A stretch of DNA of 64,000 bases from Candidatus Magasanikiibacteriota bacterium (lineage in GTDB: Bacteria > Patescibacteriota > Patescibacteriia > Magasanikbacterales > UBA922). Under the pieces are notes generated by a model. It had not been told where the DNA came from. It ran no database searches and saw nothing but the letters and a program-made list of their open reading frames with translations. A program made the position numbers and the translations under genes. Of the stretch, positions 501 through 46,697 are shown piece after piece. The stretch covers positions 24,379 to 88,378 of the forward strand of contig JABIFP010000027.1 in NCBI GenBank assembly GCA_018650645.1, read 5' to 3'. The number at the start of each line of letters is the position of its first letter. Within the stretch, counting starts at the first letter, position 1.

Positions 501-1364
501 ATGTCACCCGAAGAGAGTAAGAGGGAGCTCAGCCCAGGGGCTGCGTGGGTTGGATACTACCTGTATGATCGGGTTGGAAAGACCTTGGTCATCATCGCAG
601 CGGGCCTGGCGCTCCTTGTGGGTGCGTTCTGGTGCTTGCTGAAGGTGGCGACGCTCGCGGAAGACGCATGGCGGCCGATGGAGTGGCCGACTTTTCTGCA
701 GTTCATGCCGGACGTGCCGAATGGCGTTCCGGCACTCGCAGGTTTCAGCATGGTGATCATCATCATGCTTGTGACTATCATCGCGAAGCTGACTTGGGAC
801 ATTCCGGGTTACAGGCAGCAGATGCGCAGTAATCTGGTGCAGATCAGCATGCTCCGGGGTGAAAAGGGCGTGCTCAAGGAGAAGCTCAAGACTGCCTTTG
901 AGGGTTCCGTGCAGAAGACGCGCAAGCTCCGCGCAGGCGATGTCTCCGATGTCATCGGCACGTTCATGAACTTCATCGCCGACCAGGCGCTGCGGATCAA
1001 GGAGTGCCCGTCTGACGAACTGGATGCCCTGGCGAGGAGGATTCGCAAGGAGAACGCAGGGCTCCTGCATCATCTCTCGAACACGTACGGGAACATTCCC
1101 GCCTGTCGGAATTTCGAGGATTCGGAGAGGCAGCAGGCCCTGGAGAGGGCTGGGGCATACAGTCGCCACTGTACAGCCCACGAAATCAGTGAGCTGACCG
1201 CACTTGTCAATGACGGCATGCTGCGGTACTGGAAGGATGCTGCAGTGGAGGCCGGTCTCGATAAGCATCAGTTTGGTGGAGAGGAGATCTTCGGTAAGGA
1301 CTACACGGTCCCTCGCGCTCCCGCCAACTGGACCATGTTCACCGGGGGCTCCCTCATCACCTAG
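501..1364 (+). CDS. hypothetical membrane-anchored protein (two predicted TM helices, then a soluble domain), GC-rich foreign-looking gene
   Basis: 287-aa ORF. SD-like AAGGTG about 8 nt upstream. Hydrophobic stretches LVIIAAGLALLVGAFWCLL and FSMVIIIMLVTIIAKL. Strong rho-independent terminator at 1431-1458. GC content visibly higher than flanks. The antisense ORF 504..1268 is R/P/H-rich and judged spurious. Confidence 0.55.
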   Translation: MSPEESKRELSPGAAWVGYYLYDRVGKTLVIIAAGLALLVGAFWCLLKVATLAEDAWRPMEWPTFLQFMPDVPNGVPALAGFSMVIIIMLVTIIAKLTWDIPGYRQQMRSNLVQISMLRGEKGVLKEKLKTAFEGSVQKTRKLRAGDVSDVIGTFMNFIADQALRIKECPSDELDALARRIRKENAGLLHHLSNTYGNIPACRNFEDSERQQALERAGAYSRHCTAHEISELTALVNDGMLRYWKDAAVEAGLDKHQFGGEEIFGKDYTVPRAPANWTMFTGGSLIT

Positions 1365-1458: not shown

Positions 1459-1501
1459 ATATAAAACAAAAATCTCCTATTATGGAGATTTTTGCATATT
1501 G

Positions 1502-1574
1502 TGACCCGGGTGGGATTCGAACCCACGACCGTCGGCTTAAAAGGCCGCTGCTCTACCAACTGAGCTACCAGGTC
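1502..1574 (-). tRNA. tRNA-Lys (anticodon UUU), CCA not encoded
   Basis: Reverse complement gives GACCTGGTAGCTCAGTTGGTAGAGCAGCGGCCTTTTAAGCCG...GGTTCGAATCCCACCCGGGTCA. The 7-bp acceptor stem, D, anticodon and T arms all fold. Anticodon loop is CUUUUAA. Confidence 0.85.
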
Positions 1575-5529: not shown

Positions 5530-6210
5530 ATGATCAACTTACAAGGCATTTCAAAATTTTATACACGGGACTCTGTAGGATTACACGATGTTTCACTCTC
5601 CATTGACCATGGTGAGTTTGTTTCTGTTGTGGGGCAAAGTGGTACAGGAAAAACAACGTTAGTAAAACTCCTTATTGCAGAAGAAAGACCAACGCAAGGA
5701 ACTATTTCTATTGGCGATTGGGATATCACAAAAATTTCACAGCGAGATATTCCACTGCTGCGAAGACAAATTGGGGTAATTTTTCAAGACTTTAAGCTAT
5801 TACCTGGTAAAACAGTAGAAGAAAATGTGGCATTTGCTATGCAGGTTGCTGGTGAATCAATTAAGCGAATTAGAAATGTTGTTCCAAAAGTGCTAGACAT
5901 TGTAGGCCTTGCGCATAAGTCGCATAGATATCCAACTCAGCTTTCAGGTGGAGAACAGCAACGAGTTGCAATTGCTCGTTCATTAGTACACAGACCTAAA
6001 ATTTTAGTAGCAGACGAACCGACAGGAAATCTGGATACCGTAAATTCACAAGAAATTATTGAAATTCTCAAAAAGATTAATGAGTTTGGGACAACTATTG
6101 TACTTGTTACACATGACAAAGACATTGTGAATCAATTAAGAAAGCGTGTGATTACTATTGATAACGGAAAAATAATTTCAGACGCAGATCACGCTAAATA
6201 TCGTTTGTAA
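5530..6210 (+). CDS. ftsE: cell division ATP-binding protein FtsE
   Basis: Walker A GQSGTGKTT, ABC signature LSGGEQQR, Walker B ILVADEP. Immediately followed by ftsX. Confidence 0.9.
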   Translation: MINLQGISKFYTRDSVGLHDVSLSIDHGEFVSVVGQSGTGKTTLVKLLIAEERPTQGTISIGDWDITKISQRDIPLLRRQIGVIFQDFKLLPGKTVEENVAFAMQVAGESIKRIRNVVPKVLDIVGLAHKSHRYPTQLSGGEQQRVAIARSLVHRPKILVADEPTGNLDTVNSQEIIEILKKINEFGTTIVLVTHDKDIVNQLRKRVITIDNGKIISDADHAKYRL

Positions 6211-7213: not shown

Positions 7214-7284
7214 TCGGAGATCGTCTAATGGTAGGACTCTAGGTTTTGATCCTAGCTATCGGGGTTCGAATCCCTGTCTCCGAG
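7214..7284 (+). tRNA. tRNA-Gln (anticodon UUG)
   Basis: TCGGAGATCGTCTAATGGTAGGACTCTAGGTTTTGATCCTAGCTATCGGGGTTCGAATCCCTGTCTCCGAG. The cloverleaf folds, with a U1-A72 acceptor pair and anticodon loop UUUUGAU. Confidence 0.8.
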
Positions 7285-7426
7285 CGAATAAAAAAGCTCT
7301 GCTTTTTTATTTGAGAGGTGCAGGAGATGAGAACCTTTAGGTTCGACCGCCTAGTGGAGCGAGTCAAGAGGGTAGTTCTATCCTTTTGTGAGCGAAGTGC
7401 CGGTGGAACGAGGGCGTAGCCCGAGT

Positions 7427-7443
7427 AATCCCTGTCTCCGAGC
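7427..7443 (+). repeat. exact 17-bp direct repeat of the tRNA-Gln 3' end (AATCCCTGTCTCCGAGC), first copy at 7269-7285
   Basis: Identical 17-mer found 158 bp downstream of the tRNA 3' end. A palindromic terminator-like AAAAAAGCTCTGCTTTTTT lies in between. Confidence 0.8.
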
Positions 7444-7510
7444 AAGCAGTATTGATGTGATAAGAATAATCACGTATACTACTGCCAGCGCATATGCGCA
7501 ACCATACCAT

Positions 7511-7931
7511 TCGACGGTAGCTCAGTGGTAGAGCAGTTGGCTGTATCCAACATGTAAGTCGAAGTGAAAACCGTCATGTTTCCACCTTCATCGGTGGGGC
7601 AGGGCAAGCTACGACTGCAAAAATGCAGCCCTCAACAGGAATGTTGAGGTGAATAACGAGGTGAACTGCTGGAAGCCCTCTATTGATGCAAATCAATCGG
7701 GTAATCAGCAGCCAAGCCCCACGCACTTTTTCTTTATTGATGTGTGGGGAAGGTTCAGAGACTATCCCTTGCGGGAGTACTCTCCACATTTGTGGAGGGG
7801 AAGCGCCTCGCACCCGGCCGTCCCTTTCCAAGAGAAGGGTTATGACGAGGGTGATGATATAGTCCACGCTTCAGTGAGAATTGAAGATTGCGTGTAACCA
7901 ATTGGTCGCGAGTTCGAATCTCGCCCGTCGA
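7511..7931 (+). tRNA. tRNA-Asn (anticodon GUU) interrupted by a group I intron in the anticodon loop (exons 7511-7544 and 7895-7931)
   Basis: Joined exons give TCGACGGTAGCTCAGTGGTAGAGCAGTTGGCTGT|TAACCAATTGGTCGCGAGTTCGAATCTCGCCCGTCGAG. This is nearly identical in D-arm and anticodon arm to bacterial tRNA-Asn (e.g. GGCTGTTAACC). The 7-bp acceptor stem is TCGACGG/CCGTCGA. Confidence 0.8.
7545..7894 (+). ncRNA. group I self-splicing intron (tRNA-Leu/IC3-like core) inserted between anticodon positions 35 and 36
   Basis: 5' exon ends in U and the intron ends in G. Conserved R element GGTTCAGAGACTA at 7752-7764 and S element GATATAGTCC at about 7855-7866. CTTGCGGGAG follows R, as in the Anabaena tRNA-Leu intron. 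An 8-bp P2-like hairpin CCTCAACA-GGAA-TGTTGAGG follows a candidate internal guide GCAGCC. Confidence 0.7.
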
Positions 7932-7933
7932 GC

Positions 7934-8307: not shown

Positions 8308-8880
8308 ATGGACAAGCTAATCACGGCCAACCAGATCTTCGAGCTCCTCGGAGAGAACAAGCTCGGGCGCATTACCCGGGATCAACTGCAGGCGTTTTTG
8401 ATGTACCCTCTGGGCTGGAGGAACACCGGCGAGATCATCGAGTACGATCTCAAGCTCGGGCGCGATGCGATTAGTGCGCACGTGGCCGAAGGCAACTACG
8501 AGCACTTCGTCAGCCCTAACATCAGCACATTAGTCCACCACCTCGCCGGGCGGGGCTTTCGCACGGTGAGGTTCAAGCTTGTCCCGGGCAAGCTGTTCCA
8601 GAAACCTGAGCCGCACTTCCACTACTGCGAACGCGAGGACTTCCAGCTGTACTGCCAAGATCACCAACTCCGAGAGCCCAACGCGGCCGAGGCGACGCTG
8701 TACCCCGCCATGGACAGGCAGGTCGGGATCAAGAGCGGACCGCTGTACGCCTTCATCCACGAAGAGGATGCAATGTTCTCCGTGAGTTCTGAAGATGGCA
8801 AACGACAGCTCCTCTGGCAGAAAGCCAGCTGTACTCGTGGCTACTCTAGCGACCGGCTGTTCCTGGCCGTCTGCGTTTAG
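8308..8880 (+). CDS. hypothetical protein in GC-rich islet
   Basis: 190 aa. AGGA SD about 10 nt upstream. Balanced amino-acid composition. The antisense ORF 8530..9084 is R/G/P-rich and judged spurious. Downstream hairpin CCCCCGAC-GTA-GTCGGGGG at about 8936-8955. Confidence 0.5.
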   Translation: MDKLITANQIFELLGENKLGRITRDQLQAFLMYPLGWRNTGEIIEYDLKLGRDAISAHVAEGNYEHFVSPNISTLVHHLAGRGFRTVRFKLVPGKLFQKPEPHFHYCEREDFQLYCQDHQLREPNAAEATLYPAMDRQVGIKSGPLYAFIHEEDAMFSVSSEDGKRQLLWQKASCTRGYSSDRLFLAVCV

Positions 8881-9350: not shown

Positions 9351-9872
9351 CTAGCCCATGCTGATGTGCATGACCAGCACCGACTCGACGTCGAAGCTGT
9401 GCGGGTGCACCAGGGGCAGGTCGGCGGCCAGGGCCGTCTTCATGATGCCGATCGCCGTGGGGATGTCCATGAGGGACTTGCCCACGATATCCACCATAGC
9501 GCTGAGCGTACCGCTGAAGCAGCAGGTGGTGAGCCCACGCTTGTCTTCGTCACGCCGGATCACGAGGCACTGGTCCTCGATCACGGCGGTGAAGCCCTGC
9601 ATGGTGCACGCACCCGGGTAGCTGCGGACGAGCTCCGCAATAGCGGCGGCGTCCTTCGGCAGGTCCTTGCCCACCTTCCGGAGGAAGGGGGCGCCGATCT
9701 CGATGATGTCGAGATCTCGGCTGTCGGCCAGGTGACCGACCTCGGCGTTCAGCATCTGGCGCGTGTAGATCAGCTGCGACTCGTAGTCGTCATGATCCGT
9801 GACGTTGCCCTGCTTGATGCCGAGAGCCTGGAGAAGCGGGTTGTTCCCGCTGGTGAAGGAAACTTCCTTCAT
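9351..9872 (-). CDS. hypothetical protein in GC-rich islet
   Basis: 173 aa with protein-like composition. The overlapping plus-strand ORF 9342..9935 is H/R/G/D-rich and judged spurious. The GC-rich block runs about 9285-9960. Confidence 0.5.
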   Translation of the reverse strand: MKEVSFTSGNNPLLQALGIKQGNVTDHDDYESQLIYTRQMLNAEVGHLADSRDLDIIEIGAPFLRKVGKDLPKDAAAIAELVRSYPGACTMQGFTAVIEDQCLVIRRDEDKRGLTTCCFSGTLSAMVDIVGKSLMDIPTAIGIMKTALAADLPLVHPHSFDVESVLVMHISMG

Positions 9873-44838: not shown

Positions 44839-45000
44839 AGTCTTTGTTTTTTTGTCTTGCTCATCGCAATGCGACAAACAAAAAACTGTGGAAAACCACA
44901 GACCTTCAGAGTGTTGCATCGACCTTTGAGAAATAATTCTCATGTTGCACCTCGGTAGCCTATTTAATCCCGAAGGAAGCTACTGTCTATGGTTGGCGAT

Positions 45001-45029
45001 ATTATATAGAAATTCCCCATAAATGTCAA
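45001..45029 (-). promoter_or_regulatory. consensus sigma70 promoter (TTGACA-N17-TATAAT) for the rplJ-rplL operon
   Basis: Reverse complement of 45001-45029 reads TTGACATTTATGGGGAATTTCTATATAAT. A perfect 8-bp hairpin (45032-45050) lies immediately upstream. Confidence 0.6.
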
Positions 45030-45078
45030 GAGCCGGCCCTGGGGGCCGGCTGTGGTGAGCACATTGCTCTGGCGCTGC

Positions 45079-45297
45079 CTAGCAGCAGACTTTCAAAATC
45101 CGCACCTGAGGACTCGCGAGGTGCTCGTGGACTCCTCGAGTACCGCTGATCTGGACGCGTGTTCCCGTGGACAGGTCACAGGGCTTCTGCGTCACGACCC
45201 GCGCGTTGAAAACGAGGCCGCTCTCGGTGGGGCTCACAACCTGGACCTCCGCCCACTTCCCCTTCGAACCAACCACTTGTCCATTGTAAAAGCTCAT
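45079..45297 (-). CDS. small hypothetical protein in GC-rich islet
   Basis: 72 aa. G-rich SD (AGGGGGG) upstream. Preceded by its own consensus promoter (45321-45349). Followed by hairpin GCCGGCCC-TGG-GGGCCGGC. The plus-strand overlapping ORF is judged spurious. Confidence 0.35.
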   Translation of the reverse strand: MSFYNGQVVGSKGKWAEVQVVSPTESGLVFNARVVTQKPCDLSTGTRVQISGTRGVHEHLASPQVRILKVCC

Positions 45298-45320
45298 GAA
45301 TTTCCCCCCTAGTGATGTGA

Positions 45321-45349
45321 TCTGGGCGCATTATATAGATAATTGCACC
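45321..45349 (-). promoter_or_regulatory. consensus sigma70 promoter (TTGACA-N17-TATAAT), near-duplicate of the rplJ promoter
   Basis: Reverse complement reads TTGACATGAGGTGCAATTATCTATATAAT. About 22 of 29 positions match the 45001-45029 copy. Confidence 0.5.
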
Positions 45350-45376
45350 TCATGTCAACCCCTCTGGATAAATCTA

Positions 45377-45405
45377 TTGACAGCTTCACTAAACCTCTAT
45401 ATAAT
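45377..45405 (+). promoter_or_regulatory. consensus sigma70 promoter (TTGACA-N17-TATAAT) for tRNA-Glu
   Basis: TTGACAGCTTCACTAAACCTCTATATAAT, ending 9 nt before the tRNA start. Confidence 0.6.
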
Positions 45406-45414
45406 AATGCACAT

Positions 45415-45486
45415 GTCGCCATCGTCTAGTGGTTAGGACTCCGGGTTTTCATCCCGGCAACAGGAGTTCGATTCTCCTTGGCGATA
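45415..45486 (+). tRNA. tRNA-Glu (anticodon UUC)
   Basis: GTCGCCATCGTCTAGTGGTTAGGACTCCGGGTTTTCATCCCGGCAACAGGAGTTCGATTCTCCTTGGCGATA. Cloverleaf folds with a G1-U72 wobble. Resembles bacterial tRNA-Glu. Confidence 0.8.
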
Positions 45487-45604
45487 CTACAAGGGGTGTT
45501 TACAAGAGGAATCGAACCAGGGTTGGTAAGGGACAGCGTCCCTTACATCTGGTGGAAAGGTTGGGAAAACATGAAGTGTTCCCAAAGCGCGCAGACGCGT
45601 GTGA

Positions 45605-45622
45605 GATTCTCCTTGGCGATAC
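45605..45622 (+). repeat. exact 18-bp direct repeat of the tRNA-Glu 3' end (GATTCTCCTTGGCGATAC), first copy at 45470-45487
   Basis: Identical 18-mer 135 bp downstream. The intervening segment contains a reverse-oriented T-loop-like GGTTCGATTCC fragment. Confidence 0.8.
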
Positions 45623-45680
45623 CAATAGAGTGAAATCAAAATAGTGGCCAACGGGCCACTATTTTGTTAGGATAAATTAT

Positions 45681-46697
45681 ATGAGTAAAAAATATACAAT
45701 TTTGGGTATTGAGTCATCATGTGACGATACCGGCGTTTCTATCATTTCTACTGACGGAAACTCGTTTAAAATCCTCTTTGAGAAAACAGCAAGCCAGATT
45801 GATATTCACAAACAATATGGCGGTGTTATTCCTGAAGTTGCGGGAAGACTCCACTGTGAGGCAATCGCACCGCTTCTTGAAGAAGCACTTAGTAGTGTGG
45901 CAAATATTGATGCAATTGCAGTAACTGCAATGCCTGGGCTCATTACCGGACTACACGTTGGGGTTGAAGCTGCAAAAACACTTTCTTATACAAAGGATAT
46001 TCCTCTTGTGGGTGTTCATCATATTGAAGGACACATCATGAGTCCGCTTCTTAACAAAGGGGCTGCTATTGATGCTGTCTCATTTCCACTTCTGGCACTT
46101 GTTGTAAGTGGTGGCCATACGCAGCTTGTCCATGTCCATGAGTTTGGATCTTACTCTGTTATTGGGGATACTAGAGATGATGCAGCCGGAGAATGTTTTG
46201 ATAAAGTAGGAAAGCTCATGGGATTCATCTATCCTGGAGGGCCAAAAGTTTCAAAAGCAGCAATTGGGCATGAAGACAACATTCCCTTGCCGCGACCAAT
46301 GATGCACCATGATTCACTCGACTTTAGCTTTTCTGGATTGAAAACCGCTGCAAGATATTATCTCAGAGATAATCCAAATGCTGATGTTGGAGATGTATCA
46401 GCATCATTGGAAGCAGCAATTGTAGAAACACTTGCATATAAAACAAAAAAGGCGGCCATGCAAATTGGCGCCAAAACAGTTTTTGTTGTAGGCGGCGTGA
46501 GTGCAAACAGCGCACTCCGTGAATCGCTAGCAACATCGCTTGAAACGCAACATATTGCGCTTATTGCCCCAGAACTTGCGCATTGTACTGATAACGCAGC
46601 AATGATCGCTTGCGCCGCTACAAGGAGAGTTATGCATGGATCATTTGATTCAGTCAGTGAGCTTACTGCTAGCCCCGTTGGCATGCTCCCTCAATAA
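45681..46697 (+). CDS. tsaD: tRNA N6-adenosine threonylcarbamoyltransferase TsaD
   Basis: Kae1/TsaD family: ILGIESSCDDTGVSI, HxEGH metal site (HHIEGH), C-terminal GGVSANSALR. Confidence 0.9.
   Translation: MSKKYTILGIESSCDDTGVSIISTDGNSFKILFEKTASQIDIHKQYGGVIPEVAGRLHCEAIAPLLEEALSSVANIDAIAVTAMPGLITGLHVGVEAAKTLSYTKDIPLVGVHHIEGHIMSPLLNKGAAIDAVSFPLLALVVSGGHTQLVHVHEFGSYSVIGDTRDDAAGECFDKVGKLMGFIYPGGPKVSKAAIGHEDNIPLPRPMMHHDSLDFSFSGLKTAARYYLRDNPNADVGDVSASLEAAIVETLAYKTKKAAMQIGAKTVFVVGGVSANSALRESLATSLETQHIALIAPELAHCTDNAAMIACAATRRVMHGSFDSVSELTASPVGMLPQ

Follow-up and report, generated by a model that had tools for sequence, protein, structure and literature searches.

A 135-bp block of RtT-type architecture behind tRNA-Glu in a Candidatus Magasanikiibacteriota bacterium

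Introduction

RtT (Rfam family RF00391) of Escherichia coli is the closest described counterpart of the element treated here, a 135-bp block that follows tRNA-Glu(UUC) in a 64-kb stretch of DNA from a Candidatus Magasanikiibacteriota bacterium of the candidate phyla radiation (CPR). This stretch as a whole is called the window, and L-numbers denote loci from other genomes. To our knowledge, RtT has since the early 1990s been regarded as a curiosity of enterobacteria, with neither its function nor its origin established; a literature search on RtT returned nothing on origin or distribution. The 178-bp repeats were reportedly described by Rossi et al. in 1981, and a processed rtT RNA is said to have been described by Bösl and Kersten in 1991. 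The E. coli record that we fetched gives the tyrT order as tRNA-Tyr, RtT, tRNA-Tyr, RtT, RtT and annotates “RtT sRNA, processed from tyrT transcript” (sRNA, small RNA). AATCCTTCCCCCACCACCA, equal to positions 58-76 of tRNA-Tyr, closes two of the three units, and the first unit differs by one base.

Other described systems share parts of this arrangement. The 3'ETS-leuZ of E. coli is a functional tRNA 3' external transcribed spacer that is not known to contain a copy of the tRNA end and acts by pairing with sRNAs. Miniature inverted-repeat transposable elements (MITEs) carry fixed terminal inverted repeats and generate target duplications of 2-10 bp. Direct repeats that run from the T-loop to the tRNA 3' end are the signature of the T-loop attachment (att) sites of P4-like tyrosine integrases, as reportedly described by Williams (2002) and Reiter et al. 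(1989).

By position, breakpoint and architecture, the block behind tRNA-Glu (Glu block) is of the RtT type, and it is not a sequence member of RF00391. Two lineages differ by exactly this block, which is placed at T-loop positions 57/58; the tRNA end is doubled, and it is the distal copy that continues into the ancestral CCA, trailer and terminator. The block can be read as a small tRNA-linked, co-transcribed RNA element of the RtT class with a novel body sequence, a reading on which we stand evenly balanced between acceptance and doubt.

The duplicated 3' end of tRNA-Glu

An earlier note, made from the letters of the DNA, had reported an exact 18-bp copy of the tRNA-Glu 3' end downstream of the gene. 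This is borne out. The 18-mer GATTCTCCTTGGCGATAC has exactly two + strand copies in the window (copy 1 at 45470-45487 and copy 2 at 45605-45622, Table 1) and no additional match there at up to two mismatches; two matches occurred in 0/100 dinucleotide shuffles. The repeat begins at G57 of the T-loop (the break lies between TTC and GATT) and extends to C74, the tRNA 3' end. Positions 45000-45700 are 100% identical in five other public contigs of the same organism (one of which covers just 361 bases), so the repeat is not an assembly artefact of a single sample. The 117-nt spacer between the copies matches nothing else in the window: searches with blastn-short detect neither a second copy of it nor any similarity to tRNA-Glu beyond the 18-mer, and degenerate copies of the Glu or Gln core are absent from the window at up to three mismatches. 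Simple tandem duplication, which the earlier note had named as a possible sole source of the shared 3' end, is therefore excluded.

The gene order at the locus is rplL and rplJ (on the - strand, with the L10 leader), a GC-rich open reading frame (ORF) of 72 amino acids, divergent promoters, tRNA-Glu, spacer, copy 2, terminator and tsaD. The hairpin at 45639-45668, after copy 2, is the sole terminator-like structure of the tRNA-Glu unit. Because the block lies between the tRNA and this only terminator, it would be transcribed from the tRNA-Glu promoter. A strict consensus terminator scan did not call this hairpin, and it called no terminator in the interval from the tRNA to copy 2 either. The GC content of the spacer is ~50%, compared with 33-34% in the DNA directly downstream. 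ARAGORN detects three tRNA genes in the window (Lys, Gln and Glu), all of which are confirmed by Rfam; Rfam additionally places a group I intron at 7609-7886 and an L10 leader at 44868-45010.

The two copies differ in what follows them. Copy 2 and the nearest relative encode CCA (GGCGATACCA), which identifies the ancestral tRNA-Glu gene as one with an encoded CCA. Copy 1, now on the tRNA-Glu body, reads CTA at that place (C74 followed by TA), and CCA is not encoded. The other tRNA genes in the window are also without an encoded CCA.

Table 1. Features of the tRNA-Glu and tRNA-Gln loci in the window, with tRNA-Lys and the junction sequences expected for the Glu locus.
Feature	Position	Strand	Basis or remark
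tRNA-Lys	1501-1574	-	ARAGORN, Rfam
tRNA-Gln(UUG)	7214-7285	+	copy 1 AATCCCTGTCTCCGAGC at 7269-7285, A58 to C74
Gln block, 158 bp	7286-7443	+	terminator-like hairpin, RtT-like body, second 17-nt copy 7427-7443
RtT-like core GATGAGAACCTT-T-AGGTTCGA in Gln block	7325-7345	+	
Minus-strand perfect consensus promoter, divergent from tRNA-Glu promoter	45358-45330	-	
Promoter of tRNA-Glu unit, TTGACA-17-TATAAT, 12/12 consensus matches	45377-45405	+	conserved in relative L006 (alignment A3)
tRNA-Glu(UUC)	45415-45487	+	ARAGORN; Rfam tRNA 61.7 bits; 3' end = copy 1 (45470-45487)
Spacer, body of the inserted element, 117 nt	45488-45604	+	no counterpart at the nearest relative's syntenic locus
5' strand of predicted closing helix, GGTGTT..CAAG.GGAATC	45495-45513	+	minimum free energy and centroid folds: pairs with 45605-45623
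Hairpin 1, ACCAGG/TCTGGT around GTAAGGGAC-AGC-GTCCCTTAC (45526-45546)	45516-45553	+	fold
Hairpin 2, TTGGGAA...TTCCCAA	45561-45585	+	fold
Hairpin 3, GCGCGC-AGAC-GCGTGT, abutting copy 2	45587-45602	+	fold
Copy 2 (45605-45622) plus CA, reading ...GGCGATACCA	45605-45625	+	contiguous with ancestral downstream sequence
Terminator hairpin AAATAGTGGCC-AACG-GGCCACTATTTT(G)TT	45639-45668	+	read from sequence; conserved behind tRNA-Glu of L006
Expected empty-site junction, Glu locus			GGAGTTCGATTCTCCTTGGCGATACCAATAGAGTG
Expected circular or tandem junction, Glu block			GTGTGAGATTCTCCTTGGCGATACTACAAGG

Presence and absence among relatives

The source names carried by the TsaD and FtsX proteins point to Candidatus Magasanikbacteria (Patescibacteria, CPR). 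The nearest relative by protein database is GCA_041294365.1 (TsaD 69% and FtsX 81% identical), and it is syntenic at both the Glu and the Gln locus. It has the order rplL, rplJ, GC-rich ORF, tRNA-Glu, terminator and tsaD in common with the window. In the relative (L006), CCAAACGAAATAGTGGCC...GGCCACTATTTTG (also read as GGCGATACCAAACGAAATAGTGGCC) is located directly behind tRNA-Glu without any block, and in the window this sequence comes after copy 2 instead (CCAATAGAGTGAAATCAAAATAGTGGCC...). At the Gln locus of the relative (L011), tRNA-Gln is followed by AAGCGTC... and, 22 nt on, by an intron-containing tRNA; the window has AAGCAGT... after the second copy. The window holds exactly 135 bp more at tRNA-Glu (117-nt body plus 18-nt copy) and 158 bp more at tRNA-Gln, and at each locus it is the distal copy that continues into ancestral DNA.

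None of 11 tRNA genes in five loci of four relatives is followed by a copy of its 3' end (0/11), compared with two of the four seen in the window's genome; the ~18 kb beyond the window contain no further tRNA genes. This difference, the absence of both blocks from the nearest relative and the same start in the T-loop support the view of the earlier note that a recurrent process, and not coincidence, is at work. The Gln block is absent from L011 and from three more distant Magasanikbacteria (L012, L064 and L065), and its absence from these three favours a gain in the window's lineage.

Predicted fold of the Glu block

Folded as RNA, the 138 nt from 45488 to 45625 reach a minimum free energy (MFE) of -55.4 kcal/mol, compared with -36.5 +/- 3.6 in shuffles (z = -5.2). 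None of 200 shuffles is as stable, and the MFE structure is identical to the centroid. In both, a closing helix of 16 bp is predicted to join the 5' part of the body to copy 2 in three segments (45495-45500/45618-45623, 45503-45506/45612-45615 and 45508-45513/45605-45610), and three hairpins lie inside it (Table 1). The innermost segment is formed by GGAATC, which is the predicted pairing partner of GATTCT in copy 2. This is paralleled in RtT-like units, where an invariant GGAU pairs with the AUCC of the copy (L026 fold). Hairpin 3 is placed as P6 is in RtT-like units, directly before the copy.

Two details of the earlier note need correction. The fragment GGAATCGAACC, which it had taken for an inverted tRNA T-loop, is present at 45508-45518, but the tRNA interpretation of it does not hold: no T-stem surrounds it, and the GGAATC that it contains is predicted to pair with copy 2 instead. 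A stem noted as GGGAC-GCTGTCCC also exists, with a misread sequence; the true one is GGGAC-AGC-GTCCC, the core of the 9-bp hairpin GTAAGGGAC/GTCCCTTAC at 45526-45546. Rfam finds no known intron or ribozyme in the Glu spacer, and no match in general.

The tRNA-Gln block

The claim that a second tRNA in the window has the same arrangement is likewise correct. AATCCCTGTCTCCGAGC forms the end of tRNA-Gln (7269-7285) and recurs at 7427-7443; the repeat begins at A58 (between TTCG and AAT) and extends to C74. In a permissive scan, the Rfam RtT model aligns to the Gln block over its full length (7306-7444, 19.6 bits, E 0.1-0.2), and the block shares the RtT sequence core, yet the gathering score of 45 is not reached. 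The match stops exactly at the end of the second copy, and GAUGAGAACCUU, AGGUUCGA and CGAGUAAUCC are the blocks in common. A Smith-Waterman comparison of the Gln spacer with E. coli RtT bodies gives p ~0.05. On the grounds of sequence and context, we regard the Gln block as a diverged member of the RtT kind in a new phylum. The Glu and Gln spacers are dissimilar to each other (Smith-Waterman, p = 0.78). By BLAST, neither spacer has a match at E <= 10 in 5,426 E. coli genomes, and matches to phages reach only E ~4-5.

The Gln block carries its own A6-GC-T6 terminator-like hairpin (7291-7308) directly behind copy 1. This hairpin would uncouple tRNA-Gln from the intron-containing tRNA downstream; in the relative, the two genes are 22 nt apart and presumably co-transcribed. 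The downstream gene is a split tRNA gene (7508-7933, +) with the acceptor TCGACGG/CCGTCGA and a group I intron in the anticodon loop (RF00028, 7609-7886, 83.7 bits). It is not called by ARAGORN, and it is tRNA-Asn(GUU) or tRNA-Thr(UGU) depending on the splice-site options. The same split tRNA is found in the relative (L011, ~5622-6010), 22 nt past its tRNA-Gln. A promoter-like site at 7452-7480, between the Gln block and the split tRNA, is new in the window.

The wider RtT-like family

A scan for the core GATGAGAACCTT-N(0-10)-AGGTTCGA (20 fixed bases) in one genome per GTDB species yields 42 loci, compared with an estimated ~12 by chance (1.2e12 positions, 11 gap lengths, 20 fixed bases). In 32 of the 42 loci, a same-strand tRNA gene precedes the core by at most 100 nt, and 29 of these 32 carry a copy of their own tRNA 3' end 109-237 nt past the gene, mostly starting with AATCC and usually running through CCA. 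Five loci (L014, L015, L024, L033 and L044) are chance matches in coding regions. The family comprises ~36 elements of 110-240 nt without genes between the repeats (for example L018 83-210, L034 1285-1416, L027 952-1043 and L051 491-706). The units follow tRNAs for Tyr, Ser(GCU), Arg(ACG), Arg(CCU), Gln(UUG, CUG), Met, Lys and Pro, counted as eight tRNA species and six amino-acid identities. Their hosts belong to many orders of Gammaproteobacteria (many of them marine), to Alphaproteobacteria including a Rickettsia, to Opitutaceae (Verrucomicrobiota) and to Flavobacteriales (Bacteroidota; L018). At its gathering score, the Rfam RtT model calls none of 10 non-enteric loci. In viral contigs, the RtT core has one chance match in a coding region and one match in an E. 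coli tyrT fragment.

RtT-like units are often tandem, with 2-4 per array, and the duplicated segment reaches into the trailer in many proteobacterial loci. These trailer-extended duplications and tandem units indicate that unequal crossing-over amplifies units that are already present. Near-identical bodies stand behind different tRNAs in related Gammaproteobacteria, for example P3 CAAAATCG..CGATTTTG behind those for Ser, Gln and Arg.

An alignment of 24 units (A2), from which the window was excluded, was used to draw six helices by hand; RNAalifold on the raw MAFFT alignment returned two invariant hairpins only. Across the drawn helices 75.8% of the cells pair, compared with 66.1% in shuffles, and slid registers all stay at or below 51%. 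Double changes are found in 97 cells, compared with 44 in shuffles, and 0/500 shuffles are as high. The outer helix, formed by the 5' strand and the tRNA-specific copy, covaries; one example pair is AU in 9, CG in 6, GC in 2 and UA in 2 units. The covariation of this helix identifies the RtT-like family as a structured RNA, the ends of which change with the adjacent tRNA. R1, a covariance model built from A2, scores 61-76 bits on the E. coli RtT units, on which it was not trained, and has no match in the related Magasanikbacteria loci.

How the Glu block compares with RtT

The Glu block begins at the base after the tRNA (45488), on the same strand and inside the tRNA transcription unit, and the Gln block does likewise. 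As in RtT, the block finishes with a copy of the 3' end of the tRNA that precedes it, starting in the T-loop, with the break at G57/A58 for Glu (GATTC...), at A58 for Gln (AATCC...) and at A58 in E. coli. The Glu block also falls within the size range of the family and has a GC-rich body, for which several hairpins and a closing helix onto the copy are predicted. The differences lie in sequence and in setting. Conserved RtT sequence motifs are lacking from the Glu body, and neither the Rfam RtT model nor R1 recognises it. The Glu block is a single unit and not a tandem array, its duplication stops at the end of the tRNA and the host belongs to the CPR.

Several observations weigh against placing the Glu block in the RtT class as an RNA element. 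The Rfam RtT model has no match to it at E <= 10, R1 scores 3 bits at best, and the core GAUGAGAACCUU...AGGUUCGA and the hairpin motif CCCGNAGGG are both absent from the body. The Smith-Waterman comparison of its spacer with E. coli RtT bodies is marginal (p ~0.07). In the metagenome collection, the Glu core 20-mer GGAATCGAACCAGGGTTGGT occurs in the same organism only, plus three chance matches. The duplex between spacer and copy has an energy of -20.3 kcal/mol, compared with -16.1 +/- 2.5 in shuffles, and is equalled by 68 of 1000 shuffles; the closing helix is therefore a prediction that is suggestive at most. This predicted helix also pairs the CC of CCA. The family link through the Gln block has its own limit. 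R1 has a single significant match in the window (7311-7445, 36.1 bits, E 2.7e-9), and this score is inflated, as the training loci were picked by a motif that the window also has; since chance loci with the motif alone score from <17 to 27 bits, the excess of the Gln block is ~10-20 bits. Finally, the choice between gain and precise loss of the Glu block rests on a single comparator, so that precise loss between the repeats in the relative stands as an alternative to gain; TsaD-homologue outgroups showed no synteny at the Glu locus.

Alternative explanations

The main rival explanation is an att scar. Here, a T-loop-class tyrosine integrase element would have entered tRNA-Glu, supplied its own tRNA 3' end and later been deleted almost fully, leaving attL, 117 bp and attR. 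It accounts for the repeat, which spans the T-loop to the tRNA 3' end just as T-loop att sites do, and for the flanks: the displaced native end is kept on its ancestral flank, and the proximal copy has a new CCA-less trailer, as if supplied by an element. The new trailer of the Gln block has its own terminator, and the nearest relative lacks both blocks. The content between the repeats, however, behaves as a structured RNA would. The 117 bp have no coding capacity, and the flanks are the rplJ/L10 leader and tsaD. No integrase domain was detected in the six neighbouring ORFs scanned (three GC-rich ones beside tRNAs, the small ORF upstream of tRNA-Glu and two flanking ones), and no integrase, cargo or attP form was found in public data: 2.9 million viral contigs are without the Glu core, the Gln core has one chance match there in a gene of a high-GC virus, and attP-type or tandem junctions have zero exact matches in metagenome and genome contigs. 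Random deletion remnants need not be structured, whereas the spacer exceeds its shuffles by far, and the small, gene-free and covarying elements to which the Gln block belongs fit a defined small unit better than independently decayed prophages. We consider an att scar unlikely. Another explanation is a non-autonomous element similar to MITEs or cis-mobilizable elements (CIMEs). Such an element would target the conserved T-loop of tRNA genes, duplicate 17-19 bp downstream and be moved in trans, with the RtT-like and the Glu-type bodies as two families of cargo. The breakpoint at 57/58 is common to the Glu and Gln cases, the tRNA-Tyr of E. coli and the majority of the 29 copy-bearing loci, across eight tRNA species, relatives differ in presence, one genome holds two unrelated bodies while 0/11 tRNAs in relatives have any, and near-identical bodies follow different tRNAs in related Gammaproteobacteria. 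CIMEs and MITEs are also short and non-coding, have target direct repeats at their flanks and are present or absent between relatives. They differ in that the repeat here is 17-19 bp of the tRNA itself and that the pairing 5' strand varies with the tRNA, which simple target-site duplication leaves unexplained. No candidate enzyme was found, neither body has a second copy in the window, and the trailer-extended duplications of many proteobacterial loci look like tandem duplication by unequal crossing-over. This explanation is, in our estimate, quite improbable.

Two further explanations concern the tRNA gene itself. The earlier note had proposed to check whether the spacer is a decayed opposite-strand tRNA pseudogene, and a remnant of a tandem tRNA-Glu belongs to the same idea. 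Its attraction is that GGAATCGAACC is the reverse complement of the T-loop-like GGTTCGATTCC. The check came out negative: neither ARAGORN nor the Rfam tRNA model detects a tRNA on either strand of 45488-45604 at E <= 10, both matching only 45415-45487, CCTGG/CCTCT pair at 2/5 positions, so there is no T-stem, and the relative has no second gene there. A decayed tRNA is thereby effectively refuted, and we give it hardly any credence. The block might also be a 135-nt intervening sequence in the T-loop, with 45415-45469 and 45605-45625 as the gene. Copy 2 and not copy 1 keeps the encoded CCA, and the MFE fold of the whole unit pairs the 5' acceptor strand with copy 2. Copy 1, however, already completes a perfect cloverleaf; an intron has no need of an exact repeat; Rfam reports no group I/II intron or ribozyme signature, while the group I intron of the neighbour tRNA is recognised at 83.7 bits; and the E. 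coli RtT units come after complete tRNA genes. An intron of this kind is highly improbable.

Proposed mechanism

If the Glu block is an RtT-class RNA element, the transcript of the tRNA-Glu unit would be cut such that tRNA-Glu is released at copy 1, and the CCA-adding enzyme would then supply its CCA, as happens with the other tRNA genes here that encode none. The leftover RNA of ~135 nt, with the 3' end ...GCGAUACCA, would fold closed: its 5' segment, GGAATC included, would pair with the duplicate of the tRNA end and enclose three hairpins. What remains would be a stable by-product whose 3' terminus resembles that of a tRNA, in line with what is reported of RtT RNA in E. coli. Like 3'ETS-leuZ, this putative product would be a stable RNA from a tRNA precursor that derives from the region downstream of the tRNA; it would differ by its copy of the tRNA end. 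We speculate that the helix capped by the tRNA end could mimic a tRNA minihelix; it might help in separating or protecting the 3' end of the tRNA, or serve to divert the factors that bind tRNA ends, as a decoy.

Candidates for the installation of such blocks are T-loop-specific site-specific recombination, which has an identical signature, a non-autonomous targeting element, and transfer together with the 3' half of the tRNA through homologous recombination, after which the 5' strand would have evolved in compensation. A broader proposal is that RtT-like blocks are pan-bacterial small insertion modules, which are directed at the universally conserved T-loop of tRNA genes, enter at positions 57/58, duplicate the rest of the gene and are then shaped into a structured RNA capped by the tRNA end, and which have been active in this lineage with two unrelated bodies, one of RtT type at tRNA-Gln and one of a new type at tRNA-Glu. 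This proposal is tentative, and we would sooner doubt it than rely on it.

Neighbouring features

The GC-rich ORF upstream of tRNA-Glu (72 amino acids, 45079-45297, -, GC 58-65%) is located within 45040-45360. On one side it has a perfect consensus promoter, together with the ribosome-binding site GGGGGG, and on the other the hairpin GCCGGCCC-CCA-GGGCCGGC, which precedes the rplJ promoter. The relative (L006 4520-4850, -) conserves the promoter, ribosome-binding site and hairpin around a non-alignable ORF body. BLASTP between this ORF and the one at the same place in the relative gives no match at E <= 100, and the ORF has no match to a Pfam or NCBIfam family. The region resembles a hypervariable cassette held within a constant frame.

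GC patches of 50-53% (genome ~42%) are found at 501-1364 (+), 8308-8880 (+) and 9351-9872 (-), each adjoining a tRNA gene. The ORFs inside them have no Pfam match, and no integrase was seen. The GC-rich patches near tRNA genes may be foreign DNA.

Implications

The combination of a tRNA, a structured body and a copy from the T-loop onward recurs in at least four phyla, behind eight tRNA species with six amino-acid identities, and in a CPR genome its presence differs between relatives. Annotation should avoid taking such blocks for prophage att scars or tRNA pseudogenes. The origin of RtT-like units, and the reason why cells keep a decoy of the tRNA 3' end, now become testable. If RtT-like blocks are pan-bacterial insertion modules, this would imply a machinery that acts in trans and a function general enough to persist from E. 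coli to the CPR.

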